A stretch of DNA of 64,000 bases from Archaeoglobaceae archaeon (GTDB taxonomy: Archaea; Halobacteriota; Archaeoglobi; Archaeoglobales; Archaeoglobaceae). Position numbers and translations under genes: made by a program. The notes beneath the pieces were generated by a model that ran no database searches, was not told the DNA's origin, and worked only from the letters and a program-made list of their open reading frames with translations. Positions 4,885-50,566 of this stretch are shown piece by piece. Position 1 is the first letter of the stretch, and each line of letters begins with the position of its first letter. Location of the stretch: NCBI GenBank assembly GCA_040514265.1, contig JBEVCD010000017.1, forward strand, positions 9,287 to 73,286, written 5' to 3'.

Positions 4885-5087
4885 ACGCGACGCAAACTCC
4901 GTGGAACTTTAAAACGTTGGCGGTATAATTCAGATTTTCACTGATTAAATCTGCTGTCTTTGACGGCACACTGTTGCCTTCTCCGGTTTAGTCCTCAACA
5001 ACGTTCCATCCAGCTGTAATTACTAACGAGTCCTACCATAATGGCAATAGCTCTCGGCTTCGCATCTGCTTTCAATCTCAAAGGGCG

Positions 5088-6053: not shown

Positions 6054-6177
6054 CTCGTATTCTAGTTTTTATTCTTGACGATTCCGAGCGGTTTGTAATC
6101 GATAAACTTTAATGTATTCCATAATCGCAAGTTTTTTGTGACCGGAGAAAAAAATCTATATGATTTAATCGTAGAGT

Positions 6178-7509: not shown

Positions 7510-7515
7510 ATTTTT

Positions 7516-8538: not shown

Positions 8539-8570
8539 CGCAAGTCACTTGAGGTGCGAATACACTACGG

Positions 8571-9167: not shown

Positions 9168-9353
9168 AGCATTTTTATGATGTCTTTCAAGAATTTAAAA
9201 GTTTTGACGCATTCTTTCATATGATATATGATAAGCTCTTAATCTTTGCGAGTATAAACATAAAAAGATTTATTTGTGTAAACTGAAATTGCAGTTCACG
9301 AAGAAAGTCCTACAACGTAAATTAAAAATCACAAAAAATAGGAGGAGGAATCT

Positions 9354-9524
9354 ATGAGTGGCACCTTCGATACCGGCAGGAGCATGATGACGTCCGGTAT
9401 GCTCATACAGCCCGACCACAAGCTTGCTCTAATTATGACAGTCTCTACTGTAACAGGAGTGCAGGTTAGAAAGATAGAAGCTGATATTTTTGATAATAAA
9501 ATTTATCTTTGGTTTAGCTGCTAA
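9354..9524 (+). CDS. small hypothetical protein (56 aa)
   Basis: The ATG is preceded by AGGAGGAGG with a 5-nt spacer. The ORF MSGTFDTGRSMMTSGMLIQPDHKLALIMTVSTVTGVQVRKIEADIFDNKIYLWFSC ends 14 nt before the TauE-like gene. It is below the ORF-track size cutoff and I recognise no homology. Confidence 0.3.
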   Translation: MSGTFDTGRSMMTSGMLIQPDHKLALIMTVSTVTGVQVRKIEADIFDNKIYLWFSC

Positions 9525-9538
9525 GGTGGTGAAGGGAG

Positions 9539-10408: not shown

Positions 10409-10815
10409 TGGAAGTCGAAGTAGGGAAGGAGTACATAAGGTTTGCGAAGATTATAAGATACTTTACGAGCGCAGGACTGATTTTGCTCATAGTTTCTTTA
10501 ATAATGTACCTGCTTAACATAAATCCCTTTGTGGAACCAGACAGAGTTGTGAAAACTTGGCACCTTTCAGCCTCGGAGTTCTGGAGGGTCAACGTGGGAA
10601 AGGAGATGGAAGGCTACTCGGAGTATCTTTATATCTATCATCCAGACAATTTAGCAGTTTTCTCGCTCTTCCTCCTCGCCTTAGCCCCTGTCTTCGCACT
10701 GCTGAGCATACTGCCCAAGATGAAGGGAATTTACCGAATCCTGACTCTAATAGTAATTGCTGAGCTACTCTTCGGGGCTGCCAGACCGCTGATACTTGGA
10801 GCTTTCGGCGAGTAG
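10405..10815 (+). CDS. DUF1634-type small membrane protein
   Basis: 136-aa membrane protein with a 4-nt overlap onto the TauE-like gene. This is the usual DUF81-DUF1634 pairing. Confidence 0.6.
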   Translation: MMEVEVGKEYIRFAKIIRYFTSAGLILLIVSLIMYLLNINPFVEPDRVVKTWHLSASEFWRVNVGKEMEGYSEYLYIYHPDNLAVFSLFLLALAPVFALLSILPKMKGIYRILTLIVIAELLFGAARPLILGAFGE

Positions 10816-10910
10816 CTACCACATTGGCTGATCAGTCAAAATTCCAAGCGTCCCTTTTCTTACTCCCTCGGTAGGTAAAGCTTATAATCTCCGCACAGCC
10901 CTTTCCCCGT

Positions 10911-11297
10911 ATGGAGTTCAAGGTCGTCATATCCGATCCGAAGACGGGAAGGGCTTACCAGAAGACGATAAGCGGAGCCAACGCTAACAGACTGATAGGA
11001 AAACAGATAGGCGACATCATAAGCGGAACAGTCGTGGAGCTTCCTCCCGATTACGAGCTGCAGATAACGGGGGGAACTGACAAGGACGGATTCCCCATGC
11101 GCCCCGATCTGCCGGGCTCCGGAAGGCGAAGACTTCTGCTTTCTGGAGGGGTAGGATACAGACCAAAGGAAAGGGGTGTAAGAAGGCGGAAGATGGTCAG
11201 GGGAAGAGTGATCTCGAAGGATATCGTTCAGATCAACATGAAGGTCGTCAAGCACGGCAAGGTTCCGCTTGAGGAGATATTCAAGCAGAGCGAGTAG
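10911..11297 (+). CDS. rps6e: 30S ribosomal protein S6e
   Basis: [17 protein letters not shown]...[16 protein letters not shown]...RRRKMVRG is the characteristic S6e sequence. Confidence 0.95.
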
Positions 11298-11915
11298 ATG
11301 TCCCTCCTGAACCACAAGGGCAGGGCTAGACTCTTTTATAAATACTTTTCAAAAATATACGACTACGTAAACCCCATTTTCTACTCGGAGGAAATGAGAA
11401 AGACTGTCGTCGACATGGCGAAGATAGGCAGAAACAGCTTCGTCCTCGAAGTCGGGTGCGGTACAGGCTTCACAACCGAAGAGATAGCGAGGCGTTGCGG
11501 GCAGGAAAACGTCGTAGCGGTCGATTTAACTCCAGATCAAGTTGCGAGGGCTGTGAGAAAACTTCCGAAGGTGAACTACGTCATAGGAGATGCCGAAAAC
11601 CTCCCGTTCGATGACGACACGTTCGATGCGGCTATTTCAGCTGGCAGCATAGAATACTGGCCGAATCCGAAGAGGGGAATCGCGGAGATGGCGAGGGTCA
11701 CGAAGAGCGGGGGTAGAGTGGTTATACTGGCTCCGCGCAAGCCGGACAACTTTTTCGCCAGAAAGTTCGCGGAATCCATAATGCTCTTCCCTTCCACCCA
11801 GCAGTGCGTCAGCTGGTTCCTTAGCACCGGTTTGAAGGACGTGAGGTACGTCGAGACGGGACCTTACTTCTTCTGGAAAAAGCTGGTCGTGATAGTTTCC
11901 GGCGTCGTTCCGTGA
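11298..11915 (+). CDS. class I SAM-dependent methyltransferase (UbiE/COQ5-like)
   Basis: It has motif I VLEVGCGTG and the post-I and motif II/III pattern (AVDLTP..., GDAENLPFDDDTFD). The gene starts immediately after the rps6e stop codon. Confidence 0.8.
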   Translation: MSLLNHKGRARLFYKYFSKIYDYVNPIFYSEEMRKTVVDMAKIGRNSFVLEVGCGTGFTTEEIARRCGQENVVAVDLTPDQVARAVRKLPKVNYVIGDAENLPFDDDTFDAAISAGSIEYWPNPKRGIAEMARVTKSGGRVVILAPRKPDNFFARKFAESIMLFPSTQQCVSWFLSTGLKDVRYVETGPYFFWKKLVVIVSGVVP

Positions 11916-11927
11916 ACTTTTTAACAG

Positions 11928-12347
11928 ATGCGACCGCCCGATGTTATGGACAGGGTTATGTACATCGGACCTCTGATGCTCGACGAACCGGAGAAGTTCG
12001 ACCTCGAAGAGTTCGTGAGACAGGCGATAGCTATGGAAGCCGAGAGGCTATTCTACTCCAACGGAAGGCTTTTTCTCGTCGACTACGAAACGCTCCACGG
12101 CATAATCGACGAAAAGTTCGTGATAGTCGAACTCATAACCTACGCATCCTTCACCGAAGTTGGCGAGTACAGGAACTGGGTCGTTTACTACGGGAACGAC
12201 GATGAAGTTCAGTACGTCTCGAAGATAAAGGACTTCAGGGGAGACATGACGATCATACCGATAATAAGAACGAGAGACCGCTTCATAAGGAAGATAGAGG
12301 AGTTCATAGCCGAGGGCAAGTTCACGGACTTTACTGCTCAGAAATGA
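11928..12347 (+). CDS. hypothetical protein
   Basis: 139-aa ORF with coding-like composition and no recognisable motif. The start could be M7 or M11. Confidence 0.5.
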   Translation: MRPPDVMDRVMYIGPLMLDEPEKFDLEEFVRQAIAMEAERLFYSNGRLFLVDYETLHGIIDEKFVIVELITYASFTEVGEYRNWVVYYGNDDEVQYVSKIKDFRGDMTIIPIIRTRDRFIRKIEEFIAEGKFTDFTAQK

Positions 12348-12888
12348 ATTCTGCAACTATTCTGGCGAGTTCGTCGAACTTCCCGAAATAGAAATGATCC
12401 GTTTCCAGCTTCACGATCTTTTTGGGTTCGCTGGCGCGCTCGTATAACGTCATCGATACTCTGAGCGGAACTATCTGGTCGCGAGAAGCTACCACGAACA
12501 GTTTAGGAATCTCAACGTCCTTGAACTCTATCGAGTCGATCTCCGGAATTGGAGAGATGTAGACGGCTTTTTCACAGTATTCCGCGATGTTAGAAGCTAC
12601 GACGCTTCCGAACGAGTATCCGACGACGCTGACGGCTTCGTGTCTGTGCTTGAGGTAAGCGAGGCACTTTTTGGCATCCTCCACCTCCCCGATGCCGCTC
12701 CGGTAGGGTCTGGAGTAGTCGAAGCGGAGGACACTGAAGTTCCTGCTCAGCAGCTCGTTCGCTATCCTTTCGAGTCTGACGTCGAACATACTCCCGCCGA
12801 AGAGAGGGTGCGGTGGACAGAGCAGGACGGCTTTCGTTCCCCTGACGTCGTAGATCGCCCTTACGGAGTCTACGAAAATCTCGGTCAT
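12331..12888 (-). CDS. alpha/beta hydrolase (COG2945-like)
   Basis: It has the GYSFGS nucleophile elbow (GxSxG) and a PHPLFGG oxyanion region, at 185 aa. Confidence 0.75.
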   Translation of the reverse strand: MTEIFVDSVRAIYDVRGTKAVLLCPPHPLFGGSMFDVRLERIANELLSRNFSVLRFDYSRPYRSGIGEVEDAKKCLAYLKHRHEAVSVVGYSFGSVVASNIAEYCEKAVYISPIPEIDSIEFKDVEIPKLFVVASRDQIVPLRVSMTLYERASEPKKIVKLETDHFYFGKFDELARIVAEFISEQ

Positions 12889-13736
12889 TGTCTGGACCTC
12901 CTTATCTTATCTATAGCCTCTTCAGCCGACTCCGCGACGCTGCCTCCGAGTTCTGCGATCTTCTCCAGCTTTTCGATGTCTTCTTCGCTGCCGATTATCC
13001 CGAGCACCATCGCCGCGTCTTCCCTTATCCTTTCGTCCTCGTGCTCCAGCAGTTCCGCCACGATCTTGCGGGCTTCCGCCACGATTTCTCTCTCGCTTGA
13101 GAGGGACTCCAGCAGAGCCATCGCACCTAGCCGCACGATGAACTCCCTGTGCGCTACGAGCTTTGCGAGAACTTTTCCGAGCTTCCTCTCTCTAACGAGG
13201 TTTCTCGCTTCCTCGAACTTTCCGCTACGCAGAAGTTCGACGAGGTAGCTTTCGTAGTCTCCCTCGCTGGCACGCCTTATCCATTCGTAAGCCTCCTCTT
13301 CGCCGACAGCACCTTCGAGCTTTAGATCGCAGAAGAACGTTGTCGGAACAACTTCCACACCTTCAGAAGCTTCGTAGATATGATACTCGCTTCCGCTTCT
13401 TATGCAAGCCCTGCCCACCGCTTCGACAGTCACAGCGCAGTTCGGGCAGAGATCGGTAACGAACGTCTTGACGACGCAGCCGAGCCTTTCCTCTTCCTTC
13501 AGCTCGCAGCAGCTCTTGAGCAGCGCGAGAAAAGCCTGAAACTCCAAGCCACGGGGAATGAAGTGGTAGTAGATGTTGCAGAACTCGAAGACGTCGTCCT
13601 TCACGTTCTCGACCTCGATGTTGTCTGAAAGCTCCGCCAGCTTCCTCGCGAAATCCGCGAACCTTCCGCCGGCTCGAACCTTCACCTTGCACTTGATTCC
13701 GTCGAGGAACTTCTTGGCGATAACCTCGCTGAACAT
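12885..13736 (-). CDS. thioredoxin-like (CPNC) domain fused to HEAT-type repeats
   Basis: A CPNC redox-type motif lies in the N-terminal half. The C-terminal half has helical repeats (GAMALLESL..., [23 protein letters not shown]) resembling HEAT/PBS-lyase repeats. A 4-nt overlap couples it to the hydrolase gene. Confidence 0.55.
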
Positions 13737-32484: not shown

Positions 32485-32570
32485 CCTCCTCGCCGTAGTA
32501 ATAGTAGAGCTTCTTCTTCTTTTCCTTCGGCTCCATGGAGAAAATCTTTAAAAAAGATTTAAAATTTTCG

Positions 32571-33119
32571 TCAGCTCTTGAGCAATCTTATGAACTCCCT
32601 CATCATCGCCGGCAGATCCGGCCAGGCTCTGCTGGTTACGAGGTTTCCGTCGACCACGACCTCGGCATCCTCGTAACTTCCGCAGCTTTCGACGTCGGGC
32701 TTTACCGCCACGTAACACGTAGCTTTCCTGTCCTTCAGCAAACCGTAAGCTGCGAGTACCTGAGGTCCGTGGCAGATCGCTGCGACTGGCTTGTTCGCTT
32801 CAAAGAAGTGCCTGACGATCTTTTCGAGCTCCGGCGAGAGTCTTATGTACTCGGGAGCTCTCCCGCCGGGTATGACCAAGCCGTCGTATTCCTCGGGATT
32901 GACCTCGGAGAAGCTCTTGTTGACCCACCTGAAAATGTATCCGGGCTTTTCGGTGTAAGTCTCCCACCCTTCCTCGAAGTCGTGGACAACTGTGCGGAGC
33001 TCCTTTTTCGTCGGAGCCGCTACGTGAACTTCGAATCCCTCCTCCCTCAACCTAAAGTAGGGGTAGAATATTTCCAGCGCCTCTACGGCATCGCCGGCAA
33101 CTATCAGAACCCTCTTCAT
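32571..33119 (-). CDS. pfpI: DJ-1/PfpI-family intracellular protease/deglycase
   Basis: It has the nucleophile elbow AAICHGP and the motif VIPGGRAPE. The start is MKRVLIV. Confidence 0.85.
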   Translation of the reverse strand: MKRVLIVAGDAVEALEIFYPYFRLREEGFEVHVAAPTKKELRTVVHDFEEGWETYTEKPGYIFRWVNKSFSEVNPEEYDGLVIPGGRAPEYIRLSPELEKIVRHFFEANKPVAAICHGPQVLAAYGLLKDRKATCYVAVKPDVESCGSYEDAEVVVDGNLVTSRAWPDLPAMMREFIRLLKS

Positions 33120-33188
33120 ACCCTTTTGTTTTTCCTCCCGCAAGTTAAACTTTGCGAGCGATTTTTAACTTTCCGAACCACTTGCGCA

Positions 33189-34550
33189 GTGTACGATGTA
33201 GCCGTGATCGGCGCAGGAGTTACGGGGTGCTTCATAGCGAAAGAGCTCTCGAAGTACGAAGTCAGCGTCGTCGTTTTCGAGAAAAAGTCCGGAGTGGGAC
33301 TTTTACAGACCAAGGGGTGCAGCGGCGTTATACACGCTTTCCAGTTCCCTTTCAGCTCGCTCCGCGGCAGGCTGTGCCTTGAAGGCAATAAGATTATGGA
33401 CCGCGAAGCATCGGAGCTCGGTTTCGAGTTCAAGCGCGTGGGCTTGCTTCTACTCGCAACCAACGAGGTATCGAAGCTGATGCTTCCCATCGTAAAGCGC
33501 CTCCTTTCGAGACACCTGGACGTCAGAGCCGTGAGCAGAGAGGAGATACTCGCGACCGAGCCGAATGTTACGGAAAGGGTGAGGGGTGGACTGCTGCTAC
33601 CGTCCGCTGGTGTCGTGAATCCGGTGGAGATGACGTTCACAGCTTTCCTGTTCGCAAAGCTCAACGGCGTAGATTTCGTCTTCGACTGCGAGGTGACGGG
33701 GATAGAGAGGAGACTCGACAGGTTCGTGATAGAGACGAGCAAGGGAAAGTTCGAAGCGAGGTTCGTCGTCAACTGCGCCGGCGTATACGCCGACGAGGTC
33801 GCGAGAATGGTTGGATACGATCTCCAGATAAAACCCAGTAAAGGTTCGCACGTCGTTTTCGGCGAGAAGGGGTTCACGAACCACATGATGGCGGCGATAC
33901 CCCTAAAACCGAAACGCATAACTGGTGGAGCACTCGTCAGCGTCGACGGAAAGCCCGTCTGGGGACCGAACTTTGTCGAAGTCGACGACAAGGAGGACAC
34001 GAGCGTTACCAGAGAGGATATCGAGGGGATAATAGAGGAGTTCTCACACCTCTTCAGGAGACTGCCCGAAAAGCCGTTAGCCTACTACGCTGGAGTTATG
34101 GCTACGGCTGGGAAAGATTTTGTCATAAATCAACCGATCAGGAACTTCATAAACGTTGCAGGTATTCAGAGCCCGGGCTTAACAGCTGCTCCGGCTATAG
34201 CCAAGCTCGTCGTCAGAATGCTCGCGACGAGTGGTCTAAAGCTCAAAAGAAAGCAGAGCCTCGCGAGGTTTTCGCTAAGGAGGTTCGCAAAGATGAGCGA
34301 TGAGGAGAGGGCTAAGTTGGTAGCCGAGGACCCAAGATACGGAAGAGTAGTCTGTCTCTGCAACCTCGTTACTGAAGCTGAGATCGAAGAGATCCTGAAG
34401 CACACGCCGTGCTTCGACATCGTGAAGCACGTGACGCGAGCCGGTATGGATTGCTGCGAGTGTCACGCGGACATAATAATTTTTATACAGAGGAAGTTAG
34501 GATACTCTGTAAAGGATCAGGTAAAAAGTGACCTGGCATGGCGACGGTAG
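33189..34550 (+). CDS. FAD-dependent oxidoreductase (GlpA/L-2-hydroxyglutarate oxidase-like) with BFD-like [2Fe-2S] C-terminal domain
   Basis: It has an in-frame GTG start followed by YDVAVIGAGVTGCFIAKEL (Rossmann motif). The C-terminus has CLCNLVTEAEIEEIL...CCEC. The 5' 650 nt of the 671-aa ORF lie antisense to pfpI and I exclude them. Confidence 0.75.
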   Translation: MYDVAVIGAGVTGCFIAKELSKYEVSVVVFEKKSGVGLLQTKGCSGVIHAFQFPFSSLRGRLCLEGNKIMDREASELGFEFKRVGLLLLATNEVSKLMLPIVKRLLSRHLDVRAVSREEILATEPNVTERVRGGLLLPSAGVVNPVEMTFTAFLFAKLNGVDFVFDCEVTGIERRLDRFVIETSKGKFEARFVVNCAGVYADEVARMVGYDLQIKPSKGSHVVFGEKGFTNHMMAAIPLKPKRITGGALVSVDGKPVWGPNFVEVDDKEDTSVTREDIEGIIEEFSHLFRRLPEKPLAYYAGVMATAGKDFVINQPIRNFINVAGIQSPGLTAAPAIAKLVVRMLATSGLKLKRKQSLARFSLRRFAKMSDEERAKLVAEDPRYGRVVCLCNLVTEAEIEEILKHTPCFDIVKHVTRAGMDCCECHADIIIFIQRKLGYSVKDQVKSDLAWRR

Positions 34551-35260
34551 ATTACGTCGTGGTTGGAGGTGGTTACGCGGGACTGCTCTGCGGGAAGAAA
34601 CTGATCGACGAGGGTTTCAACACCCTCGTGTTCGACATGAGGGGCGGCGGCGGAGAGCTCGCAGTCTTCGCAAAGCTCAGCGACTTCAGGGCTAGATACG
34701 AGAAGTACATCGAGGAGATGGAGGAACTTCGAAAGGAGGTTCCGGTCGAGAAGGGGACGGTAATAAAGTCGAAGCCCGTGATTGTAAACTCGGAGAACGG
34801 ACTGAAGAGGCTCGAAGCCCGGAAGGTTCTGATATGCACCGGCGCAACCGACGTTGCGCCTACGAGGCTTAACGTTCTCGGCAAAAGGGTCGCCGGGATC
34901 TATACGCTGAACAACGCTTTGAGACTACTCGCCGAGAACATGAGCATCGGCAGCAAGATCCTCTTCGCCGCGAAGCCCGACGACGTTGTGAACGTAGCCG
35001 AGGAGCAGTTTTACAGACTCGGCTACGAAGTTGAGTTGACCGAGCTGAGGAGCGACATAAACGTAATCGGCAAGACCCGCGTTGAGGGTGTCGAGATCGG
35101 AGGAGAACTCTACAGGTGCGACGCTCTCGTTATCTACGGTGGGAGAGAACCCTTCAACCCGCTGAAGCTTCGCGGAACGCCCATTGGCAACGTTGTTACC
35201 TGCACTTACGACTATTCGAGAGTCGAGGAGCAGGTGAAGAACTTTATCTCGAAGCTCTAG
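34538..35260 (+). CDS. short FAD/NAD(P)-binding oxidoreductase (pyridine nucleotide-disulfide oxidoreductase-like)
   Basis: It has the motif DYVVVGGGYAGLLCG. A 13-nt overlap couples it to the upstream FAD oxidoreductase gene. Confidence 0.6.
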   Translation: MATVDYVVVGGGYAGLLCGKKLIDEGFNTLVFDMRGGGGELAVFAKLSDFRARYEKYIEEMEELRKEVPVEKGTVIKSKPVIVNSENGLKRLEARKVLICTGATDVAPTRLNVLGKRVAGIYTLNNALRLLAENMSIGSKILFAAKPDDVVNVAEEQFYRLGYEVELTELRSDINVIGKTRVEGVEIGGELYRCDALVIYGGREPFNPLKLRGTPIGNVVTCTYDYSRVEEQVKNFISKL

Positions 35261-37355
35261 ACTCGAACCTGTCGAGTATCTTTTTCATCTCGTAGGTAAT
35301 CTGCTCCCTCGCTCTCAGCTCGTTCAGTATACTTTCGATCCTTGAAATTTCAGCCTCAAACTTTCTCAGCAGCTCATCGCAGCTTATGTGGTCCCTTATC
35401 TCCATGTAACCCTTCATTATCGCGAGCGGGTTGAAGAGTCTGTCCGCAAGCTCCTCGAAATGCTCTAAGTTCTCCATGAGCACGTCCACGACGGTTTTTC
35501 TGACCTTCTCCATCGATGCCACTCTCAGAGCTATGCCGACGTCGCTTGCAAGGGATTCAAGGAGTTCCACCTCGTCCTCGTCGAAGTCCCCGCTGCTCTT
35601 CAGAACTATGCAGCCCACGATATCCTCGCCCACGAACAGCGGGAGTGCGAGATAGCAGAAGTCTCCGCTGAGCTTTAGAGTCTTTCGCATCTCGACGCAC
35701 CTTTCTGCCAGCTTCAAAGCTTCCTCCTCCTCTACGCCACTCGAGGACAGCATTGTGAGGTTCTTACCGTAAAAAACCGCGCTATCTCCGATTTCTTCTA
35801 GGAGCCTCGGAAGTTTCGAGAGTATCGAGATCTCCGACCTCTCTATGCTCACAGCCTTGGCAACACTTGAAACGACTCTGAGCAGTCTGTTAATCTTCCG
35901 GAGCTTCTCCTCGTTCTCCTTGATGTCTGTGATGTCCGCGAGGTTTACGAGGATCGCCGGCTTCCCCTTCAGTTCTATCCTCCTCGCCAAAACCTTCAGC
36001 CACCTGACCCTTCCATCCTTCGTCAGAACTTTGACCTCGTAGCTCTCCGGAACGTTTTCTCCTCTCAGCCTCGCGTAAAGTCTACTCTTCGCCAAATCCC
36101 TGTGCTCGGGATGTATCACGTCGTAAGGATGCGGCAGGTTGTTTATGTCCTCCATTGTGTAGCCTAGGATCTCGCTCAGCTTACTGTTCGCGTAAACTAT
36201 CCTGTCGTCCTGTATTATGAAGATCGCTGTGTGCGAGTATTCCGTGAGCGTGCGGTAAAGAGTCTCCCTCTCCTCGAGTTTCCTCCTCAGCTTTTCCCTC
36301 TCCGTGACGTCTCTCATTATGACGACTGCGTAGATAGCTTCTCCGTTTTCGTCGTAGACGAACCTAGCTGAGTACTCCAGCAGCGAGTTTCCGAGATTTG
36401 CGACTCCCCTCACAACTTCTCCGCTTTCGAGGGCTCTGCTGAGGTCGCTTTCTATGTCGCCTTTGACGAGTTCTGTGATCTTCCTCCCCTCAACGTATCC
36501 TGCAAGGTTCCTAAACGTCCCGTTCGCGAAAATTATTCTCCCCTCACGATCGACGAGGAGTATGTAGTCCGGCGATGATTCCAGGAGGGCGTTGTAGAGG
36601 GCGAGCGTCCTCTGGAACTTTTCGATTGCTTTCCTTCTGGCGGTAACGTCTCTGAGAACTATGATTCCGTTATCTCTGCCGATTAGGCTGCCAACGGCTT
36701 CAACTACTCTAAGGTTACCGCTGGCGTCGTATATCTCGACCTCCATCCTCTGAGACTTTCCACTGCTCACAGCGTTCGCTATTCTTTCTTTTACCTTCTC
36801 CACGTTCTCCTTCGGCAGGAATTCGTAGATGCTCCTTCCTACGAGCTCTTCGGGTCTGTAGCCGTAGATCGATACGGCTGGGTTCACGTAGAGAATCTTT
36901 CCGCTCGCATCGATGTGGATGAACGCATCTATCGCCGACTCAACCATCTTCCTGAACACGGAATCCGCAGCCGGGGCTAAGGCAACCTCGAATACCTCGG
37001 GTCTCTCTGAAATTCTCCGCACGAAGACAGTCTTATCAAAGAGCTCTCTCTTCCCTTCGGATACCCGAAAGCCGAAAACCTCTTCGAATTCCTTCCCCTG
37101 AACGTCTCCCAGGGCGTTAAGGAAAGCCGGATTCGCGAGCACGATCTTGCCGTTAAGGACGAAGGCGTAACCTATGGACCCGCCCCACACGGGTGCGTAT
37201 CTGGATCTGAGCTTCGAGACTATATCTCTCAACGAGTAGACGTATACTTTGCCCCCCTCCTCGAACTCCACCCAGTCGGACTTCGGAGGAGGCGATAGGG
37301 ATATGTAAAGAAGGCGACCGCTCGCATCCCTAACGGCGATCGGCGTAAATTCCAT
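35244..37355 (-). CDS. multi-PAS plus GAF sensor protein without kinase output
   Basis: It contains at least three PAS S-box-like segments (e.g. IHIDASGKILYVNPAVSIYGYRPEELVGRSIYEF, ILLVDREGRIIFANGTFRNLAGY, IFIIQDDRIVYANSKLSEILGY). A GAF-like region and a terminal helical segment follow. No HATPase_c domain is present. Confidence 0.7.
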   Translation of the reverse strand: MEFTPIAVRDASGRLLYISLSPPPKSDWVEFEEGGKVYVYSLRDIVSKLRSRYAPVWGGSIGYAFVLNGKIVLANPAFLNALGDVQGKEFEEVFGFRVSEGKRELFDKTVFVRRISERPEVFEVALAPAADSVFRKMVESAIDAFIHIDASGKILYVNPAVSIYGYRPEELVGRSIYEFLPKENVEKVKERIANAVSSGKSQRMEVEIYDASGNLRVVEAVGSLIGRDNGIIVLRDVTARRKAIEKFQRTLALYNALLESSPDYILLVDREGRIIFANGTFRNLAGYVEGRKITELVKGDIESDLSRALESGEVVRGVANLGNSLLEYSARFVYDENGEAIYAVVIMRDVTEREKLRRKLEERETLYRTLTEYSHTAIFIIQDDRIVYANSKLSEILGYTMEDINNLPHPYDVIHPEHRDLAKSRLYARLRGENVPESYEVKVLTKDGRVRWLKVLARRIELKGKPAILVNLADITDIKENEEKLRKINRLLRVVSSVAKAVSIERSEISILSKLPRLLEEIGDSAVFYGKNLTMLSSSGVEEEEALKLAERCVEMRKTLKLSGDFCYLALPLFVGEDIVGCIVLKSSGDFDEDEVELLESLASDVGIALRVASMEKVRKTVVDVLMENLEHFEELADRLFNPLAIMKGYMEIRDHISCDELLRKFEAEISRIESILNELRAREQITYEMKKILDRFESRASR

Positions 37356-39827: not shown

Positions 39828-40453
39828 GGTTCTGCCCGGAGCACGGATTTTACAGAGGCGAGAGCTGCGAGTGCGGCAGGGTGGGGGAGAAGATACTAGA
39901 CAGGGAGAAGGTCGAAAAGCTCGGCAGGCTGATGTCCGGCATACTCCGTCACTTCCCCCACAAGTTCGGGCTGGAGATGGACGAGAACGGGTGGGTCAAC
40001 TTCGAATCGCTCGTAAGGATCGTCAAGAAGAGGTACAGGTGGGCTGACCGCTGGGTTGTGAAGGCTATAGTCTACAGCGACAAGAAGGGGAGATACGAGA
40101 TAAGGGGGGACAAGATAAGAGCCAGATACGGTCACAGCGTGGAAGTAAGACTCGAAGACATGCCCGAAGCTACGGAGGACGTGCTATACTACGGAACGAG
40201 TGAGGAGGAAGCGCACAGAATACTCGAAGTCGGCATAAAGCCCGTCCGGCAGACTTTCGTCCATCTCTCCACGTCGATCGAAAGGAGCCTTGAAGTCGCT
40301 CTGCTGCGGACGGACAAACCGATAATTCTTGAAATAGATGCTAAGAGGGCAAGAGAGGACGGAATAAGGATAATAAAAGCCAACGATGCGATCGCACTTG
40401 CGAAGGAAATTCCGCCCAAGTACATAAGAAGGATCGTTCAGTACTCGTCGTAG
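39824..40453 (+). CDS. kptA: RNA 2'-phosphotransferase (Tpt1/KptA)
   Basis: It has LSGILRHFPHKFGLEMDENGWV, RYGHSV and VHLS motifs. The GTG start is preceded by GGAGGAG and overlaps the upstream stop codon (GTGA). Confidence 0.85.
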   Translation: MRFCPEHGFYRGESCECGRVGEKILDREKVEKLGRLMSGILRHFPHKFGLEMDENGWVNFESLVRIVKKRYRWADRWVVKAIVYSDKKGRYEIRGDKIRARYGHSVEVRLEDMPEATEDVLYYGTSEEEAHRILEVGIKPVRQTFVHLSTSIERSLEVALLRTDKPIILEIDAKRAREDGIRIIKANDAIALAKEIPPKYIRRIVQYSS

Positions 40454-40686
40454 TCGTACTCTTCCTCTTCCTCCTCGAACTCCTCTTCGAGTTCCTCCTC
40501 CTCTTCCTCTTCGTATCTTTCGAGCGCCTCCAAATCGAACTCCTCGTTCGTTTCGAGGAGTAACAGCTTCCCGTTTTCGTAGAGCATCCTCGAACCGCAG
40601 AGGTTGCAAGAGATTTCCAGACCCTCGTAAAGATCCGTTATTTCTATTTCCTCTCCACAGTTCGGACATCTTATTATTTTCGCCAT
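40438..40686 (-). CDS. LysW-like zinc-ribbon protein with poly-Glu/Tyr C-terminal tail
   Basis: It has a CPNCG...CNLCG ribbon. In the following 38-aa tail, 25 residues are Asp or Glu, and it ends EEEEEEYDYDEY. It has its own TATA-like box upstream. Confidence 0.65.
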   Translation of the reverse strand: MAKIIRCPNCGEEIEITDLYEGLEISCNLCGSRMLYENGKLLLLETNEEFDLEALERYEEEEEEELEEEFEEEEEEYDYDEY

Positions 40687-40761
40687 AATTCGCGTTTCGT
40701 CCTTTGACCGGATTTAAATTTTGTGATGTTAAGCGCTTCGCAATAAAAATTAAAGTTAAAA

Positions 40762-42609
40762 CTACTCGCCGTAAACGGACTGATAAACGAGTTCGATTAC
40801 GTCCATCACCTGAATTCTGTCGTCGAGCTTCTCGGTCTTCACGCCGTCTTCGAGCATTATCATGCAGAACGGGCACGCGACGGCTAGTATCTCAGCGCCG
40901 GTAGCTGCCGCCTCTCTGGCTCTTATGTTGTTCGGTCTGTCCTCTCCGGGATACTCTCTCACGAGGTTTCCTCCACCGGCACCGCAGCAGAAGCTGCGTT
41001 CCCTGTTCCTCGGCATTTCGACGAGCTCGATTCCCGGAATCGCTTTCAGTATCTCCCTCGGAAGGTCGTATATTCCGTTGTATCGTCCGAGGTAGCAGGG
41101 ATCGTGGTACGTGACCTTCTTGTTTACAGGGTGCTTCAGCTGCAGCTTTCCGCTCTTTATCGCGTCGTATATGACTTCGAGTATGAACCTCACCTCGTAA
41201 CCCTCGTACTCGTTCGCGAACGTGTTGTAGCAGTGCGGCGAAGTGGCTATTATCTTCTGCACGCCGTACTTCTCGAACGTCTGGACGTTCTCCTCCTTCA
41301 GCAGCTCGAACAGACCCTCTTCTCCGACTCTCCGCACGTCGTTTCCGCAGCACCCCTCTTCTCTGCCGAGGATCGCGTAGTTCACCCCTATGTCGTTCAG
41401 AAGCCTCACGAGCTTCTTCGTCACCTGAACGTTTCTGTTGTCGAAGCTGTGCGCACAGCCGACGAACCACAGCCACTCGAACTCTGGGTTGTCCTTTACG
41501 GTCATCACCTCAACGCTCTTCGCCCACTGATCCCTCTTGAACCTTCCCTCGCCCCACGGGTTCTTCTGCTTTTGAATATTGTTCAGGAGGTCTCTTATGT
41601 CCGGCGGAGCTTCGCCCGCCTCGATTATTCCCCTCCTGATCTCACCGATTATCTCCATCTGCTCCACGTAAACGGGGCAGACTTCCATGCAGGCTCTGCA
41701 CGTCGTGCAAGCCCAGACTGCCTCCTCGTCGAGCACGGCGTCAACGAGTAAGACGTCCTCGCCGATCTTTTTTTCGAGCCTCCTTATGTTCTGCATCAGG
41801 AACATCGGATTCAGCGTCGTGCCGGAGTTGGCAGCTGGGCATATGTCCTGGCACCTTCCGCACCGCATGCAGGAGAGGCTCGCAAGCAGGTCTCGCCTCG
41901 TGAGGTCCTTGGGCGTCAACGCTCCGACGTAGTCCTCGCCGGCGAGAGGTCTCATGACGCCAGGCTTCCTCTCGCTCCTCGTGTAGACGTTTATCGGGGC
42001 TGCGAATATGTGCAGAAGTTTCGTATACGGGACGATCGCTATGAAAGCGAGGATCAAACCGGCGTGCAGGAACCAGAGGATGTAAGAAGCTTCTTCGAGG
42101 TCGCTGAACCTCACGAACTCCTTCAGAACGAAACCGGCTAGCGCTGCGGCTATGAATATCAGGAGCACAGCGTCATCATCTTTTGCGTGCTCGTACTTCC
42201 TCGCAAACCTGCTCGGGCGTAGCAAGTACCTGTTCACAGCCGCTATCGCCAAGCCTGCGAGGATCATGACGGCTGCGATCGTCATAGCGTACTTCAGAGT
42301 GAGGTAGCTAACTCTGAAAACGTCCGGAACGACGACTCCTACTGTGAAGATCAAAATGGAGACCAAGATCACTATCGTTCCCCAGAGGAAGAGGAAATGC
42401 GACAGCCACATCTTGGGCTCTCTTTCGAGCAGCCTGATAAGCAGCAAGGCATCTCTGATTACGTACCAGAGCCTTCTCGTTGCGTTACTCGTCCTGTCCT
42501 CTCCGCTCCTGCCGATCGACACGAACTTCCACTTCTGCCACACTCCGCGTGCGAAGATGGCGATGGCGACGAAGAACGCCACAAGATACGCGACCGCGAC
42601 CGCGTTCAT
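40762..42609 (-). CDS. fused NarI/DsrM-like membrane cytochrome b module and HdrD/DsrK-like Fe-S (CCG) module
   Basis: It has five N-terminal TM helices with conserved His (SHFLF, FLHAG). These are followed by CMRCGRCQDICP and CTTCRACMEVCP clusters and two CCG-type regions (GCCGN, FCCGAGGG). Confidence 0.8.
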   Translation of the reverse strand: MNAVAVAYLVAFFVAIAIFARGVWQKWKFVSIGRSGEDRTSNATRRLWYVIRDALLLIRLLEREPKMWLSHFLFLWGTIVILVSILIFTVGVVVPDVFRVSYLTLKYAMTIAAVMILAGLAIAAVNRYLLRPSRFARKYEHAKDDDAVLLIFIAAALAGFVLKEFVRFSDLEEASYILWFLHAGLILAFIAIVPYTKLLHIFAAPINVYTRSERKPGVMRPLAGEDYVGALTPKDLTRRDLLASLSCMRCGRCQDICPAANSGTTLNPMFLMQNIRRLEKKIGEDVLLVDAVLDEEAVWACTTCRACMEVCPVYVEQMEIIGEIRRGIIEAGEAPPDIRDLLNNIQKQKNPWGEGRFKRDQWAKSVEVMTVKDNPEFEWLWFVGCAHSFDNRNVQVTKKLVRLLNDIGVNYAILGREEGCCGNDVRRVGEEGLFELLKEENVQTFEKYGVQKIIATSPHCYNTFANEYEGYEVRFILEVIYDAIKSGKLQLKHPVNKKVTYHDPCYLGRYNGIYDLPREILKAIPGIELVEMPRNRERSFCCGAGGGNLVREYPGEDRPNNIRAREAAATGAEILAVACPFCMIMLEDGVKTEKLDDRIQVMDVIELVYQSVYGE

Positions 42610-43001
42610 CTTTCAACACCTCCCGCTAGATCGGCTTTGCTGTGAATTGCGAGGACATCGGCGTGGCAGTCCTGACAGCTGTGGACGACCATCGCATCGC
42701 TACCGTGGCATGTGTAACACACAACCTCGCCTTTCGGTATCTCAACTCCCGGCGGGGCGCCGTGGCAGAGAGGTGTGAGGGGGTCTTCGACATGGCATTC
42801 CCTGCAGTCGAAGGAGTGTATCGGATGCACGTCGGCGCCGTGGCAATCGTAGCAGATGCCGAAACTGTGAGATGGATACTCGTCAGCTCTCGTGTGACAG
42901 TTCAGACAGTTAAGCTCGTATCTAATCTTTTCCCCGCTCGAAAATGCGTACGCGATCACGGGAAAGAGTAGTATTGGAATTAGAACGATGATCCACCTCA
43001 T
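42606..43001 (-). CDS. small multihaem cytochrome c (5 CxxCH)
   Basis: It has an N-terminal hydrophobic helix and five CxxCH motifs (CLNCH, CYDCH, CRECH, CYTCH, CQDCH), plus an extra PLCH. Confidence 0.8.
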   Translation of the reverse strand: MRWIIVLIPILLFPVIAYAFSSGEKIRYELNCLNCHTRADEYPSHSFGICYDCHGADVHPIHSFDCRECHVEDPLTPLCHGAPPGVEIPKGEVVCYTCHGSDAMVVHSCQDCHADVLAIHSKADLAGGVER

Positions 43002-43324
43002 CTTCCTCCCTCCACGTATTTGTTTGCCGAGTCCTCATGAATGCTCCTCACATCGCCATGACAGAGCGTGCAACCGTAGTTCGGCTCGTGTATGCTGACG
43101 AGGTTCGTCTCGTGACATTCGGAACATTCGCCTATCGGTCTGCCTACGTCCGGGTGTTTTTCCACGTAGTGGCACGTAAGGCAGTCAGCTTCTGTGTGGG
43201 CTGCGTACTCCTTCGCAAGCTGGTGACAGTCGCAGCTCCCGAGCTCTACGACTCTGACTTCTTCAACCTTCTGAACGCAACCGAAGAGTGCGAGCACGAG
43301 GAGCAGGAGTAGAATCCGTTTCAT
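42998..43324 (-). CDS. small multihaem cytochrome c (3 CxxCH plus a CxCH site), lipobox-like signal
   Basis: The start MKRILLLLLVLALFGC is preceded by GAGGTGGTG. It has CLTCH, CSECH and CTLCH, and SCDCH at the position where its paralogues have CxxCH. Confidence 0.75.
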   Translation of the reverse strand: MKRILLLLLVLALFGCVQKVEEVRVVELGSCDCHQLAKEYAAHTEADCLTCHYVEKHPDVGRPIGECSECHETNLVSIHEPNYGCTLCHGDVRSIHEDSANKYVEGGR

Positions 43325-43334
43325 CGACACCACC

Positions 43335-43733
43335 TCAGGAGTGCGGATCGTGACAGACGGTACAGTATATTCCCGCATGGTGCCCTTCGCCGACCGTGGC
43401 TACGTTCCTGCCCTCGACGTCGAGGTGGCAGTTGAGGCAGAACCCCCTCGATTTGTCCACGATCACACTTCCTTTACCCTCGGCATGCTCCATCCCCGCG
43501 CCGTGGCAAGCTTCGCACTGAACCGTCGAGTGGATCCTCATCTCTCCGACGTTCGCATGGCACTCCATGCAGACGCTCGAATCCGCGAACTTCACACTTC
43601 TCGCGATCTCCTTCTCCAGCCACGCGTTCTTACTGCTCTCCACTACCTTAGGACTAACAGCGAAGGCGTAGACGTAGAGGGTCGCGAAGACGATCGCGGC
43701 GAAGATCGTCACGATAACGATCTTTTCCTTCAT
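43335..43733 (-). CDS. membrane-anchored tetrahaem cytochrome c
   Basis: It has an N-terminal TM helix and four CxxCH motifs: CMECH, CEACH, CLNCH and CTVCH. Confidence 0.8.
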   Translation of the reverse strand: MKEKIVIVTIFAAIVFATLYVYAFAVSPKVVESSKNAWLEKEIARSVKFADSSVCMECHANVGEMRIHSTVQCEACHGAGMEHAEGKGSVIVDKSRGFCLNCHLDVEGRNVATVGEGHHAGIYCTVCHDPHS

Positions 43734-43741
43734 AGCACCAC

Positions 43742-44452
43742 CTACTCGACGACCGTATCGAGGTTAACGTAAACAACCCTCGGGAAAGTTCCGAGCTCGG
43801 GCTTGAGGACGCTGACACGCTTTCCGTTCGTCATATCCTCTATCTCAGAAGCTCTGCCGAATACTCTGGCACCTGTGGGACACGCGAGAACGCAAGCCGG
43901 TTTGAGCCCCCTCTTTATGCGGTGGTAGCAGAAGGTGCACTTGTCCGTCACCCGCTGCTCCGGATGCACGAAGGTTGCGCCGTAGGGGCAGGCTACGATG
44001 CAGTACTTGCAGCCTATGCACGTATCCTTGTCCACGAGCACCACACCCTCTTTCGTGTAGAACCTTGCGTAAACGGGGCAGACGTTTACGCATGGAGCGT
44101 TAGCGCAGTGGTTGCAGAGCTTCGGAACGTAGAACGTCTTTTTCCCCTCACTCAACCTCCTCCACTCCCTGCTGAGGAACGGGTTTTCGTCGGTGCTCAG
44201 CACGACTTTCTCCATCCTCGGCGGCAGGTCTCTCTCGACGACGTATCCCTCTATCCACGTCCGCGAGAACTTGAAGTCCATCGGAACGTCGTTCTCGATC
44301 TTGCACGCGATGACGCAGTTCCCGCAGCCTATGCACTTGGAAACGTCGATGAGCATCGCGTAACCGTCGCTTTCGTAGCCAGCACCGGCTTTCGAGATTA
44401 CGGCTAGCGGTGTCGCGGAAGCTAGCAGTTTGAGGAAGTCGCGCCTCTTCAC
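43742..44452 (-). CDS. Tat-exported 4Fe-4S ferredoxin-like subunit (DsrO/HmeA/PsrB-like)
   Basis: It has a twin-arginine signal (MKRRDFLKLL) and several CxxCxxCxxxCP clusters (CIGCGNCVIAC, CNHCANAPCVNVCP, CIGCKYCIVACP). Confidence 0.85.
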   Translation of the reverse strand: MKRRDFLKLLASATPLAVISKAGAGYESDGYAMLIDVSKCIGCGNCVIACKIENDVPMDFKFSRTWIEGYVVERDLPPRMEKVVLSTDENPFLSREWRRLSEGKKTFYVPKLCNHCANAPCVNVCPVYARFYTKEGVVLVDKDTCIGCKYCIVACPYGATFVHPEQRVTDKCTFCYHRIKRGLKPACVLACPTGARVFGRASEIEDMTNGKRVSVLKPELGTFPRVVYVNLDTVVE

Positions 44453-45648
44453 GCTTCCACCTCCACCGGAAGCAGCTTGTAGAGCACGTAGTAAAGCAGG
44501 ACGCTGAGAGCCAGGAAGCCAGTTGTGGCTATCACCTCGAAGGGATGATAAGCAGCCTCAAGGCTCAAGCCGGTAATGAGCTTCACAAGTTGTCCCCCGA
44601 GGACGAAGTCGAACCTGCTGACGAACATTCCGATCAGCGCAAGCAGCGATGCAAAGAAGACTCCAGCTGTTTTCCTTCCGATTTGCGGCGTCGCAAGCAT
44701 TATCAGAGGCAGTAGCATGCCGATGAAGACTTCAAAGAACCAGAAGTTGAAGCCGAATACTGCGAGGAAAGCCTCGTAGCTCTCCCTAGAAAGTAGGGCG
44801 GAGTTCGGATAGGCTTTGACTATGTACCTCCACCCCGTGAAGAGGGCCGCAACAACGAGTGCGAAGCCGAGGATGAACCTCAGGGTCTGCAAAGCTTCGT
44901 ACCTCTCCCCTTCGATTTTTCTACCCCTCAGCCAGTCGGCGAGTGTTACGCCGATGACGCCTATCGAAGCACCGGAGACGATGGCTGTGAGGAGCATGTA
45001 CACCGGCGTCATCGCATCGTGCCAGAGGGGCAGGTAGTTCAGCGCGAACAGTGCACCGAGGTTGCTAGTCGATATGCAGCCGACGGACACGGCGAAAAAG
45101 CTCGCGACCCTCTCGAACTCGATCGATCCACTGACCTTCGGAACCGTTAGAATCCTCGCTATCGCCCCTCTGATGCCACCTGATTCCCTAAGCTTCGCGA
45201 GGTCCTCGTAAAAGAGGAGCCACGCCTCGACGATCAAGAACAGAAAGTAAACTGTGTAGAACATTATCATCCAGAACATCGCGCTCGAAACGTTCACGTG
45301 CCCCAGAAAGGCGTAGTGAGCTCTCGGAACCTGCTCGACGTCCATCGCTATGGCAACAAGACCGACAACGATTGTGACGATTGCCATCAGCACGAGCTCT
45401 TTAAGAATCGGTTCGAGCTTCGTGTAGCCGAGGCTACCGATCGCGGCGATGATGCAGAGTCCGGTTGTGGACACGACGAGGAATACGTAGACCGCTACGA
45501 GGCTCCGCCACGGCATACCTTCGGCGGATTCGAAGGGTTCGACGGGCATTAGCGGTTTAGTGTGCATCTGCAGAACCCCGAGTGCTCCGATGACTGTAAG
45601 GGCAACGAGAACCGTCACGGCAACGGCTTCTCTCGCCTTCAGAGACAT
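44449..45648 (-). CDS. NrfD/PsrC-family integral membrane quinone-interacting subunit (DsrP/HmeB-like)
   Basis: It is a polytopic membrane protein of about 400 aa, with a 4-nt overlap onto the Fe-S subunit gene. The start is ATG 45648 or TTG 45657. Confidence 0.75.
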   Translation of the reverse strand: MSLKAREAVAVTVLVALTVIGALGVLQMHTKPLMPVEPFESAEGMPWRSLVAVYVFLVVSTTGLCIIAAIGSLGYTKLEPILKELVLMAIVTIVVGLVAIAMDVEQVPRAHYAFLGHVNVSSAMFWMIMFYTVYFLFLIVEAWLLFYEDLAKLRESGGIRGAIARILTVPKVSGSIEFERVASFFAVSVGCISTSNLGALFALNYLPLWHDAMTPVYMLLTAIVSGASIGVIGVTLADWLRGRKIEGERYEALQTLRFILGFALVVAALFTGWRYIVKAYPNSALLSRESYEAFLAVFGFNFWFFEVFIGMLLPLIMLATPQIGRKTAGVFFASLLALIGMFVSRFDFVLGGQLVKLITGLSLEAAYHPFEVIATTGFLALSVLLYYVLYKLLPVEVEA

Positions 45649-45678
45649 CACCCCCAACGACAGCGAGCCTGAAGAAAG

Positions 45679-45744
45679 TTTTTAAATTTTTTTGAAAAGC
45701 AATGATGACCGTCACACGGGAAAAGTAAAAGTTTTAAAAAATAG
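45679..45744. promoter_or_regulatory. divergent promoter region with two TATA-like boxes
   Basis: TTTTTAAATTTTTTT (45679-45693) lies about 30-45 nt from the minus-strand operon start. GTTTTAAAAAATAG (45731-45744) lies about 16-29 nt upstream of ATG 45760. Confidence 0.45.
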
Positions 45745-50487: not shown

Positions 50488-50561
50488 GGGCTCGTAGCTC
50501 AGCCAGGTAGAGCGACGGGCTTTTAACCCGTCGGTCGCGGGTTCAAATCCCGTCGAGCCCG
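50488..50561 (+). tRNA. tRNA-Lys (anticodon UUU), no encoded CCA
   Basis: It folds by hand into a cloverleaf. The acceptor stem is GGGCTCG/CGAGCCC and the D stem is GCTC/GAGC. The anticodon stem ACGGG/CCCGT carries the loop CTTTTAA. The T arm is GCGGG-TTCAAAT-CCCGT and the discriminator base is G. Confidence 0.9.
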
Positions 50562-50566
50562 CTTCC

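Follow-up and report, generated by a model that had tools for sequence, protein, structure and literature searches.

What kind of redox complex is encoded by six closely spaced genes, three of them for small multihaem cytochromes, on the minus strand (40762-45648) of a 64,000-nucleotide stretch of the metagenome-assembled genome of an uncultured Archaeoglobus relative in the Archaeoglobaceae (assembly GCA_040514265.1, contig JBEVCD010000017.1, positions 9,287 to 73,286)? This whole stretch is referred to below as the window, and coordinates are those of the window unless another locus is named. An earlier note on this DNA had described an operon resembling DsrMKJOP or Hme, with three tandem cytochromes and a fused M-K subunit, and had proposed that it leads electrons from quinol to an extracytoplasmic acceptor such as a metal. 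We found that the 615-amino-acid (aa) protein at the end of the operon is a member of the EMO/EtfD family and a homologue of AF_0755 of Archaeoglobus fulgidus, and not a DsrM-DsrK fusion. Moreover, the operon unites two modules, one consisting of an NrfD-like subunit, an iron-sulfur (FeS) subunit and a first cytochrome (cyt1), the other of two further cytochromes (cyt2 and cyt3) and the EMO-like protein.

The six open reading frames (ORFs), none of which contains an internal stop, follow each other from 5' to 3' as the genes for the NrfD-like subunit, the FeS subunit, cyt1, cyt2, cyt3 and the EMO-like protein, with junctions of -4, +8, +10, -4 and -4 nt. A ribosome-binding motif of the GGAGGTG/GGTGGTG type, resembling a Shine-Dalgarno (SD) sequence, stands 5' of every internal gene. 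A TATA-box-like element, TTTAAAAA (45679..45686, minus strand), preceded by an A-rich stretch, lies about 26 nt 5' of the first start (TTG 45657 or ATG 45648) and is a candidate archaeal promoter of the operon, and a T-rich tract right behind the last stop (40742..40761, minus strand) is a candidate archaeal terminator; both were read from the sequence. With its short junctions, SD-like motifs, TATA-like element and T-rich tract, the operon looks like a single transcript. The Pfam search found NrfD, Fer4_11, weak matches of the cytochromes to multihaem families, Fer4_8 and two CCG domains, and together with the motifs these agree at superfamily level with the P, O, J, M and K module types listed by the earlier note, whose account of six closely joined minus-strand genes is likewise borne out. 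The cytochromes carry four, three and five CXXCH motifs (cyt1, cyt2 and cyt3, respectively), to which are added CDCH in cyt2 and PLCH in cyt3, consistent with the 12-14 haems suggested before. In the Pfam scan of the 49 largest other ORFs of the window we met housekeeping genes and no dsr, etf, hydrogenase or cytochrome-maturation genes; in the same scan, no formate dehydrogenase gene and no large or S-layer-type cytochrome was found near the operon.

The assignment of the 615-aa protein (40762..42609, minus strand) rests on its sequence and fold match to EtfD, on three haem-ligand histidines and on a blocking histidine, His459. It joins in one polypeptide five transmembrane (TM) helices, two CX2CX2CX3C motifs and two CCG domains, which is the architecture of EMO and EtfD. 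Residues 1-215 (41965..42609) form a five-helix NarI-type cytochrome b domain with the N-terminus outside, according to hydropathy and an AlphaFold2 (AF2) model. Residues 240-320 (41650..41892) are HdrC-like and hold two cubane [4Fe-4S] motifs (C247/250/253/257 and C301/304/307/311), with a match to Pfam Fer4_8 and to HdrC entries in the PDB. Residues 375-615 (40765..41487) are HdrB-like and make up the two CCG domains for non-cubane clusters (Pfam CCG twice, 3.7e-40), with nine cysteines in this region. In a phmmer search the protein matched M. smegmatis EtfD (9ojn_A) with an E-value of 5.5e-77 over the TM, ferredoxin and CCG regions, and its AF2 model (pLDDT 81) was superposed on 9OJN over the whole length by Foldseek with a TM-score of 0.86 (E 1.5e-28).

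Two recent structural papers describe the EMO/EtfD family as having five NarI-like helices, two cubane and two non-cubane clusters. In these structures haem bP is held by one histidine of TM2 and one of TM5, and the distal haem by a second TM5 histidine located 18 residues ahead of the first. A further histidine occupies the position of the substrate site of heterodisulfide reductase, so that the clusters are non-catalytic and serve electron transfer only. In the protein described here, H71, H182 and H200 are invariant (alignment A1), correspond to the haem ligands H87, H233 and H251 of S. aciditrophicus EMO (SaEMO), and were found in all cytochrome-linked homologues. The segment S457-P-H459-C460 aligns to C581-P-H583-C584 of M. 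smegmatis EtfD (MsEtfD), and H459, also invariant in alignment A1, takes the substrate-blocking position of H583 in MsEtfD and H534 in SaEMO. C505, C541, C542, C579 and C582 align with the ligands of the proximal (D2) cluster of EtfD. The protein thus shows the features by which these papers define the family. H109 of SaEMO, a proposed quinone-site residue, is Syntrophales-specific.

At residues 457-460 (41230-41241) the archaeal protein reads TSPHC, with serine in place of the first cysteine of CxxC and with the CC pair kept. This Ser457-type site occurs in all archaeal homologues, including those of the AF_0755 type, unlike HdrB, M. smegmatis EtfD and S. aciditrophicus EMO, and by its residues the distal non-cubane cluster may be a further variant of a variable cluster.

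Full-length homologues of the EMO-like protein were found at 60-77% identity across Archaeoglobaceae and, among the matches listed, at about 31-38% in many bacteria, which rules out an assembly artefact or a missing stop as the source of the fusion. Hence the fusion noticed before is genuine, but its interpretation as DsrM joined to DsrK is not upheld: set against the EtfD match, the DsrK model (NCBIfam NF045796, cutoff 400) gave 62.7 bits over residues 455-552 only. In the TM domain NCBIfam returned weak matches to QmoC (its cytochrome b part, the best), TcuB (CitB) and NarI. The homologue in A. fulgidus DSM 8774, which stands for AF_0755 of strain VC-16, is 61% identical. AF0755 of strain VC-16 was named a "fused hdrDE homolog" by Hocking et al. 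(2014), and AF_0755 is listed among the EMO homologues by Kosian et al. (2026). The cytoplasmic partner of EMO/EtfD proteins is ETF, and EMO can run either way in vivo, enoyl-CoA respiration being a case of the reverse flow; this known cytoplasmic partner weakens the proposal of a conduit built around an extracytoplasmic acceptor.

The composite nature of the operon follows from the distribution of its parts, since each module was found alone in metagenome-assembled genomes (MAGs) of Archaeoglobales. The full six-gene order is present in the window and in loci L001, L082-84, L089, L091-94 and L096, and has been retained in MAGs between which the EMO-like protein diverges by 25-31%, so that both modules and their juxtaposition are conserved. 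Six other loci (L002, L003 and L097-L100) contain just a cyt2-like lipoprotein cytochrome and a cyt3-like pentahaem cytochrome ahead of the EMO-type gene. A three-gene NrfD-FeS-cyt1-like unit without an EMO-type gene was found in L086-L088, where it is followed in each of the three MAGs (about 7000-10100 of each locus) by a gene of a SpoU-family methylase; in L082-84, too, such a methylase gene is present, a few kb upstream of the six genes. The cultured A. fulgidus DSM 8774 and A. neptunius possess the EMO-type gene alone, with no cytochrome or NrfD genes adjoining. No Geoglobus or Ferroglobus name appeared among the NrfD homologues or the 120 best-scoring matches of the EMO-like protein.

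The second module starts with two cytochromes. The gene for cyt2 (42998..43324, minus strand) encodes a small lipoprotein-type multihaem cytochrome with three CXXCH motifs, a CDCH and the lipobox LFGC. In alignment A2 of five homologues the lipobox G-C16, C31-x-C33-H34, the three CXXCH motifs and four further histidines are invariant. Residues 31-34 (43223-43234) read CDCH here and CQCH in relatives, C-x-C-H being invariant in all five aligned proteins, and the four invariant histidines outside the motifs compare with three CXXCH haems. As judged from these residues, CxCH could bind a fourth haem on a contracted motif or could form a Cys/His ligand site; a limited literature search found no description of a CXCH haem motif. 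The gene for cyt3 (42606..43001, minus strand) encodes a pentahaem c-type cytochrome with a signal peptide and five CXXCH motifs. In alignment A3 its residues 74-80 (42762-42782) form an invariant P-L-T-x-x-C-H with a lone cysteine right before the histidine, and five other histidines besides those of the CXXCH motifs are invariant. This PLTxxCH may be a single-thioether haem site or a pair of axial ligands.

The cyt3 family is tiny, with six representative clusters among 1.84 billion proteins in an exhaustive phmmer search; these clusters gave no named relatives, and a word-based homology search with cyt3 returned no match but cyt3 itself. In all 12 of the 12 metagenome loci retrieved with a cyt3 profile, an EMO-like gene lies directly downstream of the cyt3 relative, and the same order was found in all genome loci recovered and in the window. 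Cyt2 and cyt3 are paralogous, as tblastn cross-matches at 27-33% show. A single tandem expansion yielding all three cytochromes is ruled out, because cyt1 belongs to the separate NrfD-FeS module seen in L086-L088. The description of three tandem cytochromes as one expansion is consequently replaced by a pair of paralogues tied to the EMO-like gene and a third cytochrome of the other module.

In that other module, the NrfD-like integral membrane subunit (399 aa; 44449..45648, minus strand) starts at ATG 45648 in the NCBI annotation, its longest ORF beginning at TTG 45657. It matches Pfam NrfD with an E-value of 5.6e-31, while in NCBIfam just weak matches, to HybB and HmcC, were obtained, and its homologues come from uncultured Archaeoglobales only. 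Its AF2 model (pLDDT 80) is most similar to ActC of Alternative Complex III (ACIII; 6btm_C, TM-score 0.82), and it is predicted to be the quinone-interacting subunit. The FeS subunit (43742..44452, minus strand) is a Tat-exported four-cluster protein of the NrfC/PsrB/DsrO type, with an RRDFLK motif and 16 cysteines in four cluster motifs. It contains Pfam Fer4_11, its best PDB match is PsrB (2vpw_B, 3.5e-41), and it scored 187 bits with the TtrB model and 151 bits with the DsrO model of NCBIfam, each under its cutoff. Cyt1 (43335..43733, minus strand) is a tetrahaem c-type cytochrome with four CXXCH motifs and one N-terminal TM anchor, and a cyt1-like gene accompanies the NrfD and FeS genes in the stand-alone units. 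The module thus has three parts in common with ACIII, Qrc and Nrf: an NrfD-like subunit without cofactors, an FeS subunit with several clusters that is exported by the Tat route, and a multihaem cytochrome anchored in the membrane. The operon of the window lacks the molybdopterin-like part of those complexes (ActB1, QrcB), whether as subunit or as domain, and the other subunits of ACIII. Because the NrfD model is nearest to ActC and the FeS subunit nearest to the PsrB/NrfC type, the module appears to resemble a minimal ACIII/Nrf-like quinone:cytochrome c oxidoreductase.

We further looked for comparable arrangements in bacteria. Among the matches listed, etfBA stands beside the EMO gene, its classical setting, in 31 of 85 loci, all 31 of them bacterial. 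In seven bacterial loci multihaem cytochromes adjoin the EMO-like gene, and FeS and NrfD subunits are near in five of the seven, which comprise L012, L014 and L019 from Eubacteriales and a second subclade with L008 and L078. L008, from a deltaproteobacterial MAG, is one of the 31 loci with etfBA and has (5909-13284) the order etfB, etfA, EMO-like gene, multihaem cytochrome, tetrahaem cytochrome, FeS and NrfD. In L014 (Eubacteriales, 1494-9950) and L078 (unclassified bacterium, 3447-10999) genes for a multihaem cytochrome, FeS, NrfD, a molybdopterin oxidoreductase and another multihaem cytochrome are joined to the EMO-like gene.

In a neighbour-joining (NJ) tree the seven bacterial cytochrome-linked EMOs form one clade, sister to the etf-linked EMOs of Syntrophales; the cytochrome-linked proteins of archaea make up a separate clade, whose sister is the stand-alone AF_0755 type. 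All 12 of 12 cytochrome-linked proteins, archaeal and bacterial, start at TM1 and are without the periplasmic "[GT]RExxW" N-terminal segment that is present in AF_0755-type and Syntrophales EMOs, and the archaeal clade is also without about 18 residues of the outer TM4-TM5 loop. To judge by these missing segments, the stripped outer face could let c-type cytochromes reach the distal b haem or haems.

How might these parts work together? We propose, and give it about an even chance, that the operon products form a two-module complex whose transmembrane wire links an ETF-type flavoprotein, periplasmic c haems and the menaquinone pool. Cyt2, cyt3 and the 615-aa protein (module A) would be a cytochrome-coupled version of EMO/EtfD. 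On the cytoplasmic side its two non-cubane and two cubane clusters would exchange electrons with a soluble flavoprotein, most likely ETF; the b haems of the five-helix domain would carry the electrons across the membrane, and on the outer face these would pass to the tethered cyt3 and cyt2 and not to menaquinone alone. Module B (NrfD, FeS and cyt1) would act as a menaquinone:cytochrome c oxidoreductase that ties the same periplasmic haem pool to the quinone pool. The preferred flow would be outward, from ETF-type donors in fatty or organic acid oxidation to the periplasmic haems, and then to menaquinone via NrfD or to another periplasmic partner.

Contact of the cytochromes with the b-haem domain is what we infer from the order of cyt3 and the EMO-like gene in 12 of 12 loci, from the 4-nt overlap and the SD-like motifs and from the missing N-terminal segment. 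ETF is the probable partner because the cytochrome-linked EMOs of bacteria have the etf-linked EMOs of Syntrophales as their sister group and because of the gene order in L008. The reading of module B is based on three observations: NrfD-FeS-cyt1 also stands as a unit of its own, NrfD resembles ActC, and bacterial cytochrome-linked EMO genes, too, occur with NrfD and FeS genes, some with a molybdopterin subunit and some without. Outward flow is favoured because of the etfBA context of L008 and because EMO moves electrons from the negative to the positive side of the membrane, which has been described as its way past the unfavourable step from ETF to quinone.

Several observations weigh against this proposal. 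No etfAB genes were found within 8-10 kb of any archaeal locus or in the 64-kb window. The N-terminal segment is also missing in etf-linked homologues of Paenibacillus (Bacilli), so its loss is not exclusive to cytochrome-linked proteins. Since EMO is bidirectional in vivo, the direction of flow is not readable from sequence, and the report that A. fulgidus co-induces AF0755 and its Vht hydrogenase on H2/thiosulfate (Hocking et al. 2014) fits an inward, menaquinol-oxidising role. Finally, the DsrMK(K) and DsrMK genes that adjoin the operon in locus L101, from a related genome, may hint at a link to sulfur respiration. In this locus (contig Ga0209426_1000043, 12327-18758) a NarI-like and two DsrK-like genes, DsrMK(K), directly follow the six-gene operon, and a DsrK-like and a NarI-like gene lie on the opposite strand, making in all three HdrDE/DsrMK-type units within 12 kb.

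The first alternative takes the inward direction in earnest. Hmc consists of a multihaem cytochrome c, an NrfC-like FeS protein, an NrfD-like protein, a NarI-like cytochrome b and an HdrD-like CCG protein, a set of module types identical to the one found here, and Tmc of cytochrome c3, a cytochrome b and an HdrD-like protein. By analogy, electrons from periplasmic H2 or formate, or from menaquinol via NrfD-FeS, would pass to the c and b haems and on to ETF, for example for enoyl-CoA reduction, or to a ferredoxin-like acceptor. The reversal of EMO in enoyl-CoA respiration and the co-induction of AF0755 with a hydrogenase suit such a route, and HmcB, HmcC, HmcF and TmcB were among the weaker NCBIfam matches. 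However, all scores with Hmc and Tmc models are far under their cutoffs (for Hmc, in bits with the cutoff in brackets: HmcA 17 (400), HmcB 108 (420), HmcC 36 (550), HmcF 55 (750)), and the scanned ORFs near the operon include no gene for a hydrogenase or formate dehydrogenase. L008, the sole locus with an explicit cytoplasmic partner, has etfBA upstream as in typical beta-oxidation clusters, though this does not settle the direction. We consider the inward route unlikely.

The second alternative is the one put forward in the earlier note, in which the 12-14 haems are the first stretch of a chain to an extracellular acceptor (for instance a mineral of Fe(III) or Mn(IV), an electrode or a partner in syntrophy). 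At least 12 c haems on the outer face and two membrane modules would be in keeping with such a chain, and one MAG bearing the operon, S5B8_HD70, presumably comes from a hydrocarbon-degrading enrichment, to judge by its isolate name. According to the literature, Archaeoglobales include Fe(III) reducers that rely on multihaem cytochromes. On the other hand, the cytochromes of the operon are of 108-132 aa each, membrane-anchored or lipid-tethered, and alone would be unable to cross the S-layer, and the large or S-layer-type cytochrome that could take over was not met among the scanned ORFs nearby. Moreover, the cultured Fe(III) reducers Geoglobus and Ferroglobus are unrepresented among the NrfD homologues and the 120 best EMO-like matches, and the DsrMK-type genes of L101 suggest a sulfur-respiring host. 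The metal or extracellular acceptor proposed before thus finds no specific support, and we regard this reading as quite improbable.

The third alternative is a DsrMKJOP- or Hme-type complex, in which menaquinol or periplasmic electrons pass via c and b haems to the CCG domain, where a DsrC-type disulfide is reduced for sulfite reduction. DsrMKJOP indeed has the same set of module types, the DsrO model ranks second among the NCBIfam matches of the FeS subunit, the NrfD fold is like that of ActC, which a published NJ dendrogram of NrfD-like subunits places with DsrP, and DsrMK(K) and DsrMK genes adjoin the operon in L101. Nevertheless, the scores stay below the cutoffs for DsrK and for DsrO (NF045797, 151 against 200), and no model for DsrJ, DsrP or DsrM was matched, the existence of such models in the NCBIfam set being unconfirmed. 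His459 fills the substrate site in the manner of EMO and EtfD, which are non-catalytic, and the protein has two CCG domains and the three-histidine haem pattern of EMO. Genuine, separate DsrMK paralogues coexist with the operon in L101, and the cultured sulfate reducers A. fulgidus and A. neptunius have no cytochrome or NrfD genes beside their homologue. We agree with the earlier note that no dsrAB or dsrC lies near in the window, none being present among the 49 largest ORFs, and that the operon does not look like a partner of sulfite reduction; with a blocked substrate site, sub-threshold Dsr scores and true DsrMK genes beside the operon in L101, a role as DsrC reducer is very unlikely. Least credible of all is mere adjacency, in which NrfD-FeS-cyt1 and cyt2-cyt3-EMO-like protein work independently and their joint operon has no mechanistic meaning: each module does stand alone elsewhere (L086-L088 on the one side, L002, L003 and L097-L100 on the other), but the junction between them is of 10 nt with an SD-like motif, the six-gene order is kept over 25-31% divergence of the EMO-like protein, and in bacteria cytochrome-linked EMO genes also lie with NrfD and FeS genes (L012, L014 and L019; L008 and L078).

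A more far-reaching possibility can be put forward, tentatively and as one that we hold to be less likely than not. The operon might specify an undescribed class of complex, a cytochrome-c-coupled EMO or "ETF:cytochrome c oxidoreductase" with an ACIII-like NrfD module attached, which would deliver electrons of beta-oxidation directly to a periplasmic haem wire instead of, or besides, menaquinone. Archaeoglobales and bacteria would each have evolved such complexes separately and would in both cases have lost the periplasmic N-terminal segment that caps the distal haems; in these archaea the complex might be the entry point of an extracellular or interspecies electron-transfer chain.

The window has some other features. 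On the plus strand, 32535-35260 encodes two proteins, a GlpA-like FAD oxidoreductase that contains a BFD-type [2Fe-2S] domain and, after it, a short Pyr_redox_2 protein; no gene for a GlpC-type CCG subunit adjoins them. The EMO-like protein, whose gene is 5.5 kb away on the opposite strand with unrelated genes between, matches GlpC (8.8e-22); a functional tie between the two is speculative. An 82-aa ORF (40438-40686, minus strand), separated from the operon by 75 nt on its downstream side, combines an N-terminal CxxC...CxxC zinc-ribbon with a strongly acidic tail rich in E and D, has its own TATA-like element and gave no Pfam match; in L082-84 an acyl-CoA synthetase-like gene occupies this position on the opposite strand. 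Further genes encode a 703-aa protein with multiple PAS domains and one GAF domain and no recognised output domain (35244-37355, minus strand), a TauE/SafE sulfite-exporter family protein (9539-10408, plus strand) and a thiolase adjoining a 2-oxoacid:ferredoxin oxidoreductase-like gene (1263-4884). A single tRNA-Lys(TTT) is located at 50488-50562 on the plus strand.

EMO/EtfD proteins are the link from beta-oxidation to the membrane in syntrophs, sulfate reducers and mycobacteria, and to our knowledge all characterised members pass electrons to or from menaquinone. The existence of a conserved variant with a fixed connection to c-type cytochromes and NrfD suggests that the family has a second output, at the outer face of the membrane. 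This would bear on how hyperthermophilic Archaeoglobales dispose of high-potential electrons from the oxidation of fatty acids or alkanes, on the role of the enigmatic JOP-type add-on modules, and on the assembly of transmembrane redox complexes from interchangeable modules. It also corrects a likely annotation trap, in which the EMO-type protein is labelled "heterodisulfide reductase-related" or "DsrMK-like".

As compared with known systems, the operon shares with DsrMKJOP and with Hme (AF0499-AF0503) the same five types of subunit, namely NrfD-like, periplasmic FeS, c-type cytochrome, NarI-type cytochrome b and CCG-type FeS protein. The likeness to DsrMKJOP also extends to the modular logic, an MK core with a JOP add-on, each able to stand alone. 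However, the equivalents of M and K are fused here into a protein of the EMO type, whose substrate site is blocked and which has two CCG domains; three cytochromes with 4, 3(+1) and 5(+1) motifs take the place of the single trihaem DsrJ; the scores with the Dsr equivalog models are below cutoff, the window offers no dsr context, and true DsrMK paralogues coexist in L101. The Hmc of Desulfovibrio differs in that its haems are in one 16-haem protein, whereas here they are spread over three small ones, the b and CCG parts are fused, and the host is an archaeon. The core of cyt2, cyt3 and EMO-like protein parallels Tmc of Desulfovibrio. Because no curated model for DsrMKJOP, Hmc or Tmc reaches its cutoff, we did not file the operon under any of them.

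The NrfD-FeS-cyt1 module is comparable to ACIII, Qrc and NrfBCD: besides the likeness of NrfD to ActC, its Tat-exported FeS subunit and anchored multihaem cytochrome are like ActB/ActA, QrcC/QrcA and NrfC/NrfB. Unlike ACIII, the archaeal operon is without a molybdopterin-like subunit, a second NrfD-like subunit, ActD and ActE, and it is joined to an EMO-like protein; its bacterial analogues L014 and L078 do have the molybdopterin subunit. The nearest relatives of module A are the EMO/EtfD proteins SYN_02638, MSMEG_0690 (PDB 9OJN) and AF_0755, the family's structures having been solved recently, in 2025-2026. With these it shares the single-chain architecture of NarI-type cytochrome b, two cubane and two CCG parts, the three haem-ligand histidines, the substrate-blocking histidine, and similarity in sequence and fold over the whole length. 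In contrast to them, the gene has no adjacent etfAB, a linkage that is common and not universal in the family, and the product has lost the periplasmic N-terminal segment and part of the TM4-TM5 loop; as compared with M. smegmatis EtfD and S. aciditrophicus EMO, the distal cluster has Ser457 for the first cysteine of CxxC and retains the CC pair. A limited literature search found no complex described in which EMO or HdrD is combined with multihaem cytochromes and NrfD. Unlike the genes of EMO and EtfD, the gene described here shows translational coupling to those of two dedicated c-type cytochromes and of an NrfD-FeS-cytochrome module, and what is new is this obligate pairing of an EMO-type protein with dedicated c-type cytochromes, together with its place in one operon with an ACIII/Nrf-like module.

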